Notes: generated by a model not told the origin, from the letters alone. A stretch of 64,000 nt of DNA from Escherichia coli (GCF_965641715.1 NZ_OZ282453.1); one strand, 5' to 3'. Numbered from the stretch's first letter, positions 11,091 to 43,777 are shown. Numbers and translations are program-made.

Positions 11091-11290
11091 GACGGATAAG
11101 GCGTTTACGCCGCATCCGGCATTCAGTGCAAATGCCAGATGCGACGCTGACGCGTCTTATCTGGCCTACTTTAATGTAATCTGTTGAAATAATGGGATTC
11201 GTAGGACGGATAAGGCGTTTACGCCGCATCCGGCAATCGGTGCAAATGCCAGATAAGACACTAACGCGTCTTATCTGGCCTACAGGTGAT
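11078..11290. repeat. REP/BIME elements, two direct copies of a ~114-bp unit
   Basis: GGGATTCGTAGGACGGATAAGGCGTTTACGCCGCATCCGGCA... occurs at 11080 and 11194; each unit holds a pair of inverted REP palindromes (GCCGGATGCGGCGT / GACGCGTCTTATCTGGCCTAC). Confidence 0.8.
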
Positions 11291-21256: not shown

Positions 21257-21296
21257 ATAATGTTTATAAAATTAGAAGATAATTTATAAACATTAT
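21257..21296. promoter_or_regulatory. Perfect 14-bp inverted repeat in the mqo upstream region
   Basis: ATAATGTTTATAAA (21257-21270) / TTTATAAACATTAT (21283-21296) with a 12-nt spacer, about 85 bp upstream of the mqo start; AT-rich. Confidence 0.4.
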
Positions 21297-23028: not shown

Positions 23029-23400
23029 GATGTGCCACATCCGGCAGGGTATGCCGGATGTGGCGTATGCTGATAAGACGCGTCAGCGTCGCATCAGGCA
23101 ACCGGCTCGGACGTTGGATGTCGGATGCGGCGTAACCGCCTTATCCGACCTGGCGGTTGCAGCACTTCACAGCGGTGTAGGCCTGATAAGACGCGCCAGC
23201 GTCGCATCAGGCAACCGGCTCGGGCGTTAGATGTCGGATGCGGCGTAACCGCCTTATCCGACCTGGCGGTTGCAGCACTTCACAACGGTGTAGGCCTGAT
23301 AAGACGCGCCAGCGTCGCATCAGGCAACCGGCCAGGGCGTTAGATGTCGGATGCGGCGTAACCGCTTTATCCAACCTACGGGGTGCCGCACTTCACAGCA
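23029..23400. repeat. REP hairpin plus tandem array of about three 113-bp BIME-like units
   Basis: Perfect 13-bp inverted repeat GCCACATCCGGCA/TGCCGGATGTGGC at 23033-23063. Unit TGATAAGACGCGCCAGCGTCGCATCAGGCAACCGGCTCGGGCGTTAGATGTCGGATGCGGCGTAACCGCCTTATCCGACCTGGCGGTTGCAGCACTTCACAACGGTGTAGGCC repeats at 23071, 23184 and 23297. Confidence 0.85.
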
Positions 23401-37614: not shown

Positions 37615-40206
37615 ATGCATCAATCTGGTTCTGTTTCTCTTTGTCGTTCCGCAATATCTGTTCTGGTGGCTACAGCGTTATATTCACCCATAGCATTGGC
37701 ATCAACAGTTGAGTATGGTGAGACAGTTGATGGTGTTGTCCTGGAAAAAGATATCCAGCTGGTTTATGGGACCGCCAATAATACGAAAATCAATCCTGGC
37801 GGAGAACAGCATATTAAAGAATTTGGTATAAGTAGTAATACTGAAATTAACGGCGGGTATCAGTACATTGAAATGAATGGCACCGCAGAATACTCCGTAT
37901 TAAATGATGGTTATCAAATTGTTCAAATGGGTGGCGCGGCAAACCAGACTACCCTCAATAATGGTGTGCTACAGGTTTATGGCGCAGCGAATGATCCCAC
38001 GATTAAAGGCGGGCGCTTAATCGTTGAAAAAGATGGGATTACCGTCCTTGCCGCTATCGAAAAGGGAGGATTACTGGAGGTTAAAGAGGGGGGATTAGCG
38101 ATTGCGGTAGATCAGAAAGCAGGCGGTGCTATTAAAGCAACCACGCGGGTCATGGAGGTATTCGGAACAAACCGTCTCGGTCAGTTCGATATCAAGAATG
38201 GAATTGCAAACAATATGCTGTTGGAAAACGGCGGAAGTTTGCGAGTTGAAGAAAATGACTTCGCTTATAATACTACTGTAGATAGTGGCGGCTTACTGGA
38301 GGTTATGGATGGCGGGACTGCAACTGGCGTTGATAAAAAAGCAGGCGGAAAATTAATTGTCTCAACGAATGCGCTGGAAGTGAGTGGTACAAACAGTAAA
38401 GGCCAATTTAGTATAAAAGATGGTGTGTCAAAAAATTATGAACTGGATGATGGTTCCGGGCTTATTGTTATGGAGGACACGCAGGCCATTGACACTATCC
38501 TCGATGAGCATGCCACTATGCAATCGCTGGGAAAGGATACTGGTACGAGAGTGCAGGCAAATGCGGTATATGATCTCGGTCGATCAGATCAGAATGGAAG
38601 TATAACGTATTCCTCTAAAGCCATCTCTGAAAATATGGTTATCAACAATGGCCGCGCTAACGTCTGGGCTGGCACAATGGTTAACGTTTCAGTCAGAGGG
38701 AATGATGGCATTCTTGAGGTCATGAAGCCGCAAATAAATTATGCACCCGCAATGTTGGTGGGTAAGGTAGTGGTTTCTGAGGGCGCTTCTTTTAGAACGC
38801 ATGGTGCCGTGGATACCAGCAAAGCGGACGTTTCGCTCGAAAATAGCGTATGGACCATCATTGCCGATATCACTACGACGAACCAAAACACCCTCCTCAA
38901 CTTAGCCAACCTTGCGATGTCTGACGCAAATGTGATTATGATGGATGAGCCAGTGACTCGTTCATCTGTGACGGCAAGTGCGGAAAATTTCATTACGTTG
39001 ACCACCAATACCCTGTCGGGAAACGGCAATTTTTATATGCGTACCGATATGGCTAATCATCAGAGCGATCAGCTCAACGTCACCGGTCAGGCAACAGGTG
39101 ATTTCAAAATATTCGTGACGGACACCGGTGCCAGCCCGGCAGCAGGAGATAGCCTTACACTGGTAACAACGGGCGGCGGTGATGCTGCATTTACGTTGGG
39201 CAATGCCGGAGGCGTTGTTGATATCGGTACGTATGAATATACCTTGCTGGATAATGGTAACCATAGCTGGAGTCTGGCAGAGAATCGCGCGCAAATTACC
39301 CCTTCAACCACTGATGTGCTAAATATGGCGGCAGCACAACCGCTGGTATTTGATGCAGAACTGGACACCGTGCGTGAGCGTCTTGGTAGCGTAAAAGGCG
39401 TTAGTTACGATACGGCGATGTGGAGTTCGGCAATTAACACCCGCAACAACGTGACCACTGATGCGGGAGCTGGTTTTGAGCAAACATTGACGGGCCTGAC
39501 GCTCGGTATCGATAGCCGTTTCTCCCGTGAAGAAAGCAGTACAATTCGCGGCTTGTTCTTTGGTTACTCTCATTCTGATATTGGTTTTGATCGCGGCGGA
39601 AAAGGTAATATCGATAGCTATACCCTGGGGGCTTATGCCGGTTGGGAGCATCAGAACGGTGCCTATGTTGATGGGGTGGTGAAAGTTGACCGTTTTGCCA
39701 ACACCATCCATGGCAAGATGAGTAATGGGGCAACAGCGTTTGGCGATTACAATAGTAACGGCGCGGGTGCTCATGTTGAGAGCGGGTTCCGTTGGGTTGA
39801 CGGATTGTGGAGTGTTAGACCCTATCTGGCCTTTACCGGCTTTACCACAGATGGTCAGGACTACACGTTATCAAACGGCATGCGCGCGGACGTGGGAAAT
39901 ACCCGGATATTACGCGCTGAAGCGGGAACGGCGGTAAGCTATCACATGGACCTGCAAAACGGTACGACGCTGGAACCCTGGCTGAAAGCCGCCGTGCGTC
40001 AGGAATACGCCGATTCTAACCAGGTGAAAGTTAATGACGATGGCAAATTTAATAATGATGTGGCTGGAACCAGTGGCGTTTATCAGGCTGGGATAAGGTC
40101 ATCGTTTACCCCGACGTTAAGCGGTCATTTGTCAGTCAGCTATGGCAATGGCGCAGGGGTAGAATCGCAGTGGAATACTCAGGCGGGTGTGGTCTGGACG
40201 TTCTGA
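37615..40206 (+). CDS. yejO: Autotransporter adhesin-like protein YejO, uninterrupted
   Basis: 863-aa ORF; signal peptide (SVLVATALYSPIALA/STVE); repetitive Gly/Asn-rich passenger region; C-terminal beta-barrel translocator ending ...QAGVVWTF (terminal aromatic). Confidence 0.85.
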   Translation: MHQSGSVSLCRSAISVLVATALYSPIALASTVEYGETVDGVVLEKDIQLVYGTANNTKINPGGEQHIKEFGISSNTEINGGYQYIEMNGTAEYSVLNDGYQIVQMGGAANQTTLNNGVLQVYGAANDPTIKGGRLIVEKDGITVLAAIEKGGLLEVKEGGLAIAVDQKAGGAIKATTRVMEVFGTNRLGQFDIKNGIANNMLLENGGSLRVEENDFAYNTTVDSGGLLEVMDGGTATGVDKKAGGKLIVSTNALEVSGTNSKGQFSIKDGVSKNYELDDGSGLIVMEDTQAIDTILDEHATMQSLGKDTGTRVQANAVYDLGRSDQNGSITYSSKAISENMVINNGRANVWAGTMVNVSVRGNDGILEVMKPQINYAPAMLVGKVVVSEGASFRTHGAVDTSKADVSLENSVWTIIADITTTNQNTLLNLANLAMSDANVIMMDEPVTRSSVTASAENFITLTTNTLSGNGNFYMRTDMANHQSDQLNVTGQATGDFKIFVTDTGASPAAGDSLTLVTTGGGDAAFTLGNAGGVVDIGTYEYTLLDNGNHSWSLAENRAQITPSTTDVLNMAAAQPLVFDAELDTVRERLGSVKGVSYDTAMWSSAINTRNNVTTDAGAGFEQTLTGLTLGIDSRFSREESSTIRGLFFGYSHSDIGFDRGGKGNIDSYTLGAYAGWEHQNGAYVDGVVKVDRFANTIHGKMSNGATAFGDYNSNGAGAHVESGFRWVDGLWSVRPYLAFTGFTTDGQDYTLSNGMRADVGNTRILRAEAGTAVSYHMDLQNGTTLEPWLKAAVRQEYADSNQVKVNDDGKFNNDVAGTSGVYQAGIRSSFTPTLSGHLSVSYGNGAGVESQWNTQAGVVWTF

Positions 40207-40267: not shown

Positions 40268-40300
40268 AAAAAAACCAACCGTAAGGGTTGGTTTTTTTTG
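40268..40300. terminator. Bidirectional intrinsic terminator (yejO on plus, proL on minus)
   Basis: AAAAAAACCAACCGTAAGGGTTGGTTTTTTTT: hairpin flanked by an A-run and a T-run. Confidence 0.85.
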
Positions 40301-40307
40301 GGATTTT

Positions 40308-40384
40308 TGGTCGGCACGAGAGGATTTGAACCTCCGACCCCCGACACCCCATGACGGTGCGCTACCAGGCTGCGCTACGTGCCG
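40308..40384 (-). tRNA. proL: tRNA-Pro (anticodon GGG)
   Basis: Minus strand reads CGGCACGTAGCGCAGCCTGGTAGCGCACCGTCATGGGGTGTCGGGGGTCGGAGGTTCAAATCCTCTCGTGCCGACCA: cloverleaf with GGG anticodon and encoded CCA end. Confidence 0.95.
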
Positions 40385-40458
40385 ACTCGTGGCTGTTAAT
40401 ACTACCGTTTTCCACACCGATTGCAAGTAAGATATTTCGCTAACTGATTTATAATTAA

Positions 40459-42219
40459 TCAGTTAGCGATAAAACGCTTCTCGTCTGTCAGTACTTGCAA
40501 TAACAAACTTAACTGTGGTTTTTCATCTTTCACTCTTTCACCACGTAAGTTGTAAGTGCGGTATTTACCGTTATTGTTCAGCACCAGCGTCTTTTTCGGG
40601 GTGGTAATTGCCAGCGTATCGTTATCCGCTGCGGTAACCCAGTAATGACGGCGTTGAGGGTTGAACAAATCCTGACCTTGCGAATATTCGCTGGCAGGTG
40701 TGCTGACATGTAGCAGGCGTTGCATCAGCGTCGTCATCAGATCGGTATGATCAGTCAGCGCATTAATACGCTGCGCCGGCGTGCCTGGCCAGTGAATCAC
40801 TAATGGCACCTGCAGATGACCGTGGGACCAGTCAAAGGTTTCTTCCTCTTCGCTCAGTGGAATACCCCGACCGGCAGTGATAATCACCACCGTATTGTCC
40901 AGTTTGCCAGAATCACGCAGTGCATTGAGCACGCGGTTGATCTGGTCATCGACATTGCCTGCCGCCCGGCTATATTTCCGTGCAAAAGCCTGCTGATTGC
41001 TGTCGTCAATGTTAGTACCATTGAAAGAGACCCACGAGAACCAGCGGTTATCTTCTTGTGCGTAGCGGCCAAGCCAGTTGATCCACTGCGTGGCGGTCTG
41101 CTCGTCGGATTGGGTGCGTACGCTCGGCATCGAGAAATCTGACAACAATGCCTGGCGATACAGCGGGCTGGTAAAGCCATCTGATGAGAATAACCCCAGC
41201 TGATAGCCTTGCTGATTAAGCGCAGTAATTAATGCCGCAGGCGTACGGGTCGACAGAATGCCGTCCATATAGCTCGGCGAGATGCCATAGAACAGGCCAA
41301 AGATGCCGTTGTCTGTAGTGTTGCCGGAGCTCATATGGCGCGTGAACGAAATATTTTGCTCAGCAAAACCTGCCAGCGCAGGCATCTGCTTCTCGAAGCG
41401 TGAGTAGTTCAGGCCATCGACAGTAATCAACAGCACATTCTGCCCGGTGCCCATATCGCGATAGCGCAGTTCGCTTAACGGATACTGAACGGAAACGGCG
41501 TCTGGATTACCTTGCTCAATAAGACGGCGTTGATACTCCTGCGCATCAAGCAGGCCATGCTTCTCAAGAAAACGTCGCGCCGTCATCGGGTACGAAAGCG
41601 GCAGGTTAGCGCGCTGCATGGTGATCGGGCGATAGAAGTTGGCATCGGCCCAGATATACACCACATGCGAGGCGATAAAGGCGATAAATAAGAATGCGGC
41701 CAGCGGGCGCGCGAAGCGTCGACGACGCGTCAGGCTGCGCAGCTTTTGCCAGCTCCACGTCGCAAACACCAGTTCAAGCAATAAAATAACCGGCACGCTG
41801 ATGAACATCAGCTGCCAGTCGCGCGCCATCTCATTTTCGTCTGGGTTGATAACCAGTTGCCAGACGATGGGATTAAGATGGAGATGGAAACGAGTAAAGA
41901 CTTCGCTATCGATCAGTAATAGCGTCATTCCCGCCGTTGCCAGAATGACGGACAAAAACCTCATCAGCCTCTGGGAGCCGACGATAAAGGTCAGCGGGAA
42001 GAGGATCAGCAAGTAGGCGGCGAACACCAGGAAGCTGAAATGGCCGATAATGCTTACGTAGGAATAAATGCGACCAGCAAGCGTGGTCGGCCAGTCGGCG
42101 ATAAACAGGTAACGGCTGCCAATGACGAGCGAAAGCAGAATATTGAACAGTGCAAACCAGTGCCCCCAACTGACCATCTGGGAGACTTTTTCACGGTAGC
42201 GCTGACGATGAGTTACCAT
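40459..42219 (-). CDS. yejM: Inner-membrane protein YejM/PbgA (LapC; sulfatase-like periplasmic domain)
   Basis: 586-aa ORF; N-terminal TM helices plus alkaline-phosphatase-superfamily domain. Confidence 0.93.
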   Translation of the reverse strand: MVTHRQRYREKVSQMVSWGHWFALFNILLSLVIGSRYLFIADWPTTLAGRIYSYVSIIGHFSFLVFAAYLLILFPLTFIVGSQRLMRFLSVILATAGMTLLLIDSEVFTRFHLHLNPIVWQLVINPDENEMARDWQLMFISVPVILLLELVFATWSWQKLRSLTRRRRFARPLAAFLFIAFIASHVVYIWADANFYRPITMQRANLPLSYPMTARRFLEKHGLLDAQEYQRRLIEQGNPDAVSVQYPLSELRYRDMGTGQNVLLITVDGLNYSRFEKQMPALAGFAEQNISFTRHMSSGNTTDNGIFGLFYGISPSYMDGILSTRTPAALITALNQQGYQLGLFSSDGFTSPLYRQALLSDFSMPSVRTQSDEQTATQWINWLGRYAQEDNRWFSWVSFNGTNIDDSNQQAFARKYSRAAGNVDDQINRVLNALRDSGKLDNTVVIITAGRGIPLSEEEETFDWSHGHLQVPLVIHWPGTPAQRINALTDHTDLMTTLMQRLLHVSTPASEYSQGQDLFNPQRRHYWVTAADNDTLAITTPKKTLVLNNNGKYRTYNLRGERVKDEKPQLSLLLQVLTDEKRFIAN

Positions 42220-43749: not shown

Positions 43750-43777
43750 AAAAAACCCCGCCGGAGCGGGGTTTTTT
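43750..43777 (-). terminator. rplY intrinsic terminator (bidirectional hairpin)
   Basis: AAAAAACCCCGCCGGAGCGGGGTTTTTT just downstream of the rplY stop. Confidence 0.85.

Follow-up and report, generated by a model that had tools for sequence, protein, structure and literature searches.

A perfect inverted repeat lies across the stop codon of yejM (lapC/pbgA) in Escherichia coli, upstream of the tRNA gene proL, and its position raises the question of which of the two neighbours it serves, as it could act as RNA, at the 3' end of the yejM message, or as DNA, at the promoter of the tRNA gene. The sequence-only reading of this DNA had proposed either a protein-binding palindrome or a 3' stabilising stem-loop. 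The locus is described here in a window of 64 kb, which is the whole stretch of DNA that was analysed, is 100% identical to O145 strains and provides the coordinates used throughout, and is compared with the same junction in other Enterobacterales.

Anatomy and rarity of the palindrome

The palindrome is a 13+13 bp perfect inverted repeat of 33 bp overall at window 40437-40469, which corresponds to MG1655 2286126-2286158, with the following parts:

40437-40449, left arm, TCGCTAACTGATT, the exact reverse complement of the right arm
40450-40456, spacer, TATAATT, 7 nt, A/T-only
40457-40469, right arm, AATCAGTTAGCGA, the exact reverse complement of the left arm
40434-40472, the segment that encloses the repeat, TTTCGCTAACTGATT TATAATT AATCAGTTAGCGATAA

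The description previously made of it, 13-bp perfect arms around a 7-nt A/T spacer over the yejM stop, is thus confirmed in coordinates and arms. The stop codon TGA (40461-40459, minus strand) falls within the arm at 40457-40469, and the last three codons of yejM, ATC GCT AAC, belong to the same arm, which is the promoter-distal one. Perfect inverted repeats with arms of at least 13 bp and loops of at most 12 nt number four in the 64-kb window, whereas 200 dinucleotide-preserving shuffles of it hold 0.01 on average and never more than one. Other perfect inverted repeats, with arms of 12-14 bp, are found at 21257-21296, 23034-23064, 11248-11279 and 43750-43777; the first of them, at 21257, is rich in A/T and has arms of 14 bp around a spacer of 12 nt, and the other three look like REP or terminator hairpins. 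The palindrome is itself enclosed by a 9-bp outer inverted repeat, TTGCAAGTA / TACTTGCAA (40492-40500 and 40421-40429), which includes the proL -35 hexamer; this outer repeat is found in Escherichia only and is therefore probably due to chance.

Of 5425 complete E. coli genomes, 5408 carry the 33-mer with an identity of at least 99%, and the search for it elsewhere returned one locus per genome, the two places counted in each being the two strands of a single site. At the palindrome, Rfam reports no family, only sub-threshold noise. A REP element or other dispersed palindromic repeat, as well as a known RNA family, is rejected on these grounds. An intrinsic terminator is also rejected: a T-run after the palindrome is absent on both strands, the sequences beyond the arms being AAATATCTTAC and TAAAACGC, and the terminator scan gives nothing at 40437-40469, which bears out the earlier statement that this is not a canonical terminator.

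Position with respect to the proL promoter

Along the minus strand, yejL is followed by yejM, the palindrome, the proL promoter, tRNA-Pro(GGG) and the terminator. The features on which the argument depends are these:

40459..42219, minus strand, yejM (lapC/pbgA) coding sequence, from the ORF and annotation
between the palindrome and the -35 hexamer, minus strand, a 10-nt stretch, AATATCTTAC
40421..40426, minus strand, proL -35 hexamer, TTGCAA
40399..40404, minus strand, proL -10 hexamer, TAGTAT, separated from the -35 by a 16-bp spacer
after the -10 hexamer, minus strand, discriminator TAACAGCC, G+C-rich at its 3' end
40390 (A, M+6) and 40391 (C, M+7), minus strand, proL start sites, transferred from published primer extension (PMC5291269)
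between the start A (40390) and the tRNA, minus strand, CGAGT
40308..40384, minus strand, proL, tRNA-Pro(GGG)
40268..40298, intrinsic terminator hairpin flanked by an A-run and a T-run, placed after proL and also facing the convergent yejO

Primer extension has mapped the proL start sites at M+6/M+7, and the gene is monocistronic, as no longer precursors were seen in northern blots or among more than 350 cDNA clones (Mohanty 2016, PMC5291269). The start lies 9 nt past the -10 hexamer, the gap between the end of yejM and the tRNA measures 73 nt, and the proL promoter has no conserved UP element. The dyad centre, at 40453, stands at -62/-63 from the mapped starts, and 27 bp separate it from the first base of the -35 hexamer downstream, so that the palindrome occupies the upstream activating region of this promoter, which the sequence-only reading had not noticed. 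In this respect it is comparable to class I sites such as that of CRP at lac (-61.5), as a dyad of dimer size is centred some 62 bp before the start and the promoter lacks a conserved UP element. It differs from CRP sites in that the dyad does not fit TGTGA-N6-TCACA and its half-site spacing is 12 bp instead of 11 bp. On the other side of the tRNA gene, yejO (window 37615-40206) is an intact autotransporter ORF of 863 aa in this strain, while the annotation of K-12 MG1655 has it as a split pseudogene.

A Fis-type core at the centre of the dyad

The central part of the palindrome matches the description of a binding site for Fis:

40445..40461, minus-strand reading, centre 40453, candidate Fis-type core with flanking bases, T-GATTAATTATAAATC-A

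The inner 15 bp plus the two flanking bases read tGATTAATTATAAATCa, with G at -7, C at +7 and 13 of 13 A/T positions between them, and with T at -8 and A at +8. Fis sites have been described as A/T tracts of about 15 nt with conserved G/C flanks (PMC3064808), in which T and A are over-represented at ±8, where G is strongly inhibitory; a pyrimidine-purine step at ±(3-4) is present in about 80% of half-sites, and contacts of Fis with the backbone reach ±10 to ±13 (PMC4784862). The candidate has the T-A step at -4/-3 in one half-site only, the other half reading A-A. The pattern G-[A/T]13-C gives four matches in the 64-kb window with both strands counted, two of which are this site. TGATT-N7-AATCA occurs in the window at this site alone, and a looser version of the pattern is no rarer than chance.

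The classical site of this kind, Fis site I of rrnB P1, is centred at -71, and the proL core therefore lies 8-9 bp nearer to its promoter. The two are alike in other ways, as are the upstream activating sequences of tyrT and thrU(tufB): all have a core of 15 bp, rich in A/T, that runs from a G to a C, and T/A at ±8. As at Fis-activated stable-RNA promoters, the candidate site precedes the promoter of a tRNA gene, in which a 16-bp spacer is combined with a discriminator rich in G+C. Arrays of three phased Fis sites are not found at proL, which has a single obvious candidate; two weaker G-N13-C candidates, tGAAAGATGAAAAACCa and cGAGAAGCGTTTTATCg, centred at 40524 (-134) and 40475 (-85) within the yejM coding sequence, could be additional low-affinity Fis sites. 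A further departure from a usual Fis upstream activating sequence is that the proL core, which is predicted from sequence, is embedded in a perfect palindrome with 13-bp arms over the stop codon of an essential upstream gene.

A network derived from RegulonDB had already placed proL, among other tRNA operons, in a module of Fis and stable RNAs (PMC544888), so that it resembles the Fis-regulated tRNA operons in being listed among them. The kind of element is already known, and Fis control of proL is already recorded in regulatory databases. Taken together with anatomy, position with respect to the mapped starts, motif match and the conservation described below, this prior link supports the proposal, held with moderate confidence, that the palindrome serves proL, at its sigma-70 promoter, as the upstream activating site and would most likely be bound by a Fis dimer.

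The other monocistronic tRNA-Pro gene, proK, lies 91 nt downstream of eptB (MG1655, L091:2617-2830). eptB encodes a membrane enzyme of the PF00884 sulfatase family, and its ORF ends in GCT AAC TAA, similar to the GCT AAC of yejM; the EptB and YejM proteins are distant relatives (E = 0.008). The DNA upstream of proK contains no comparable Fis-like core at this spacing, and its intergenic DNA cannot be aligned with that of proL.

Conservation within Enterobacteriaceae

For the comparison within the family, 80 loci were retrieved, giving 76 distinct Enterobacteriaceae sequences. All of them keep the yejM end ...RFIAN, a tRNA 71-77 nt later and the conserved CTTGCA (-35) and TAnTAT (-10) motifs. 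The palindrome is conserved, and its long perfect arms are specific to the family. Two clades are distinguished, one of 40 E. coli-like sequences and another of 36 that carry a tandem duplication of GATT (TGATTGATT) just after the stop codon. GATT-N7-AATC is centred 25-28 bp before the -35 hexamer in both. In the duplication clade the stop codon, including its G, falls outside the 15-bp core, and the stops found there are TGA (31), TAA (4) and TAG (1); non-TGA stops are counted in 5-6 of the 36 sequences, versus none of the 40 in the other clade.

The sequence of the spacer varies freely, even by inversion, yet it stays A/T-rich. With identical arms, Citrobacter sedlakii (L003:3259-3290) has TATAATT where its relatives have AATTATA, and a second pair of reverse-complement spacers, in L004 and L038 on one side and L019, L023, L026 and L031 on the other, is formed by TATTATT and AATAATA. 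The arms have also responded to the duplication in different ways: in Klebsiella (L056) the right arm is re-matched to the new left arm (AATCAATCAG, 7-nt loop), while Phytobacter (L047) and Kosakonia kept the old arm with an 11-nt loop.

The third positions of GCT and AAC (window 40462-40467) are invariant in 76 of 76 sequences, whereas the synonymous sites around them are saturated; where GATT is duplicated, the T of GCT is outside the dyad and is invariant nonetheless. Throughout the family, the outer right arm AnTTAGC (+8 to +14), together with GATT/AATC (±4 to ±6), is conserved to the same degree as the promoter hexamers, with T at +10, A at +12 and G at +13 nearly invariant in the 76 sequences. 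The inner AATCA has never changed, even by transitions that would be compatible with RNA pairing.

The core follows the promoter in outgroups

Six outgroup sequences (Sodalis, Biostraticola, two Serratia, Gibbsiella and Yersinia) bring the comparison to 82 Enterobacterales. All six keep the order yejK-yejL-yejM-tRNA-Pro(GGG), with yejM ORFs that end in GCC/GCG AAT/AAC TAA/TAG. The dyad is shorter in Sodalis (ACTGCTT-N7-AAGCAGT) and imperfect in Serratia and Gibbsiella. Between families, the bases at ±6 have switched from A/T to C/G on both sides, preserving the dyad. Yersinia, whose intergenic region is of 97 nt, lacks a dyad at the stop codon, and it has GGTTAAAAAAACAGC exactly 18 bp before the -35 hexamer.

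A G-N13-C core placed 17-19 bp before the -35 hexamer is present in 82 of the 82 sequences, next to a CTTGCA that is conserved in nearly all of them. T occupies -8 in 81 (Yersinia has C) and A occupies +8 in 80, and the A/T content of the core, which at Fis sites goes with a narrow minor groove, is 12-13 of 13 in 74 sequences and 9-11 of 13 in the remainder. What is constant is therefore that a Fis-type core stands at a set distance from the -35; its position relative to the stop is not constant. The stop codon starts 8 nt upstream of the dyad centre in E. coli, 12 in Klebsiella, 12 in Sodalis and about 72 in Yersinia, while the centre is found 25-28 bp before the -35 throughout. The yejM stop of Yersinia is some 60 nt further upstream and the dyad has decayed, but the core remains at the promoter, from which it follows that the element tracks the proL promoter and not the 3' end of yejM. 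Two distant yejM homologues without a downstream tRNA have no dyad at their stop codon, and one of them has an ordinary terminator.

These comparisons favour the first of the functions that had been put forward, a protein-binding palindrome, on account of the core at the promoter, its motif match and its presence in all 82 sequences; the partner, Fis, is a prediction.

A possible RNA hairpin at the yejM 3' end

It could also be argued that the palindrome functions in the transcript. A read-through yejLM RNA would fold a 13-bp stem, which could block 3'-to-5' exonucleases or mark a point of processing or termination before proL. The folding of the yejM 3' end does predict a stable hairpin on the sense strand (-18.1 kcal/mol, z = -6.5 with respect to shuffles), located right at the end of the ORF as in known 3' stabilising stem-loops and terminators. 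The potential to form it persists in Enterobacteriaceae (-8.8 to -17 kcal/mol), where the 4-nt insertion is absorbed by re-registering of the arms. The outermost pair is exchanged between C-G and U-A (18:7, with 11 unpaired), G-U wobbles are common in the insertion clade, and the change at ±6 between families affects both sides. Moreover, as proL is monocistronic, yejLM transcripts must end or be processed within the 73-nt gap.

The evidence from mapped RNA ends goes in the opposite direction. Term-seq (Adams 2021) lists no 3' end at 22861xx, that is, at the base of the hairpin near MG1655 2286158, in a dataset that is thresholded, although the same tables include a weak end inside yejM (2284559) and the proL 3' end (2286287). 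The U-tract is absent, and the stop codon lies in the stem, unlike in usual 3' stem-loops. Apart from the outermost pair, covariation is essentially nil, the 5' arm being frozen by coding; +9, in the middle of the stem, mismatches repeatedly, and in about 10 Enterobacter species the third pair, counted from the loop, is an A-C mismatch. The loop consists of A and T only, and the inner stem does not vary even by changes that wobble pairing would tolerate, neither of which a stem alone would need. In Gibbsiella (z = +0.9) and Yersinia (z = +0.07) no significant hairpin is predicted, yet the core is at the same distance from the promoter; the Yersinia stop has no hairpin, and the core there is about 60 nt downstream, beside the promoter. 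A hairpin function is consequently considered unlikely as the explanation of the palindrome, and the earlier suggestion of a stabilising stem-loop as its main role is not supported, in view of the Term-seq data, the weak covariation and the outgroup core that stays with the promoter. A stabilising hairpin is possible as a secondary role.

Origin and conservation of the long arms

The perfect arms of 11-13 bp are an extension specific to Enterobacteriaceae and are longer than Fis needs. One way of accounting for them is that a different dimeric protein recognizes the extended dyad CTAACTGATT-N7-AATCAGTTAG as its operator, acting on proL or on yejM read-through. The conservation of specific bases out to ±14 in 76 species would agree with this, as would the free position +9 between fixed neighbours, which is the pattern left by base-specific protein contacts. 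Against it, a second copy of the motif is found neither in E. coli genomes nor in the window, so that no regulon is visible, and the adjacent genes include no dedicated regulator; in Serratia, Gibbsiella and Yersinia it is the Fis-like core that is conserved, and not the outer arms. By eye, the dyad does not fit the known operators of CRP, FNR, LexA, Fur, IHF, ArgR, Cra, SlyA, PmrA or NikR. Such an additional operator is regarded as improbable. A Xer/lox-like recombination core, with 13-bp arms and a spacer of 6-8 bp, was also compared by eye with known sites and does not fit, and no recombinase or island junction is present upstream of proL.

The arms could instead be a mutational by-product, in which one arm is frozen by yejM coding and the other is copied from it by intrastrand template switching, with no function beyond the core. 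Spacer inversions with unchanged arms are a signature of hairpin template switching, the right arm was re-matched after the GATT duplication in some lineages (Klebsiella: AATCAATCAG), and long arms are found only where the stop codon falls inside the dyad. Inversion of the spacer and re-matching after an insertion are likewise seen at the quasipalindrome template-switch hotspots of E. coli; these are mutational phenomena without function, while the proL core is under long-term constraint. This explanation assumes a rate of correction relative to point mutation, and it does not account for the fixed distance between core and -35 in every genus, even where the core is wholly outside the coding sequence, nor for the invariant synonymous third positions of GCT and AAC. 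As a full account of the element it is improbable. On the other hand, as a process acting upon a Fis-type site, quasipalindrome correction against the coding-constrained arm may have produced the long arms, or these may add a minor role as an RNA hairpin. The excess conservation of the outer arm and of the synonymous sites would possibly reflect such a minor RNA role, an additional protein, or repeated hairpin-templated correction, the last being suggested by the spacer inversions and the Klebsiella re-matching.

Proposed model and its implications

According to the model favoured here, Fis, which is abundant in fast growth, would bind the 15-bp core GATTAATTATAAATC centred at -62/-63, bend the DNA and aid RNA polymerase at a promoter that is built like rrnB P1, with the -35 TTGCAA, a 16-bp spacer, the -10 TAGTAT, a G+C-rich discriminator and a start 9 nt past the -10. 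Binding of Fis at this candidate site, and activation from it, are what the model would predict for proL. Because there are only 73 nt from the end of yejM to the tRNA, the stop of yejM and the three codons before it would double as the promoter-distal half-site, an overlap that would be an accident of gene spacing.

The arguments for a Fis site are the position at the promoter, the motif match, the rarity of the pattern, the conservation of the core with an invariant AATCA, a spacer that keeps its composition without a fixed sequence, the freedom of the stop codon once it is outside the core, and the previous listing of proL (PMC544888). The arguments against it are the centre at -62/-63 instead of -71, the pyrimidine-purine step in a single half-site, the lack of a comparable core at proK, the paired change at ±6 that keeps the dyad, and the fact that GATT/AATC and the outer right arm are more sequence-specific than the mostly backbone contacts of Fis require.

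It is tempting to consider a dual use, in which the end of yejM forms half of the proL activator site and, through an extension of the dyad in Enterobacteriaceae, the same 33 nt of the yejLM read-through transcript fold a hairpin that would insulate or stabilise the mRNA ahead of the tRNA promoter. This is a doubtful proposition; if true, a gene that regulates LPS and a rare proline tRNA would be linked in expression through one sequence. For the most part, the Fis-type site would be ordinary, a normal upstream activator site of a tRNA promoter whose control by Fis has been recorded. It is nonetheless a clear case in which the promoter of a neighbour constrains the end of a coding sequence and its stop codon, GCT and AAC being fixed at their synonymous sites in 76 species. 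It also carries a warning for genome engineering, as C-terminal tagging or deletion of yejM/lapC would destroy the upstream half of the proL activator site. Finally, the Enterobacteriaceae provide a natural series in which the arms of the palindrome re-register following a duplication of 4 bp and its spacer is inverted.
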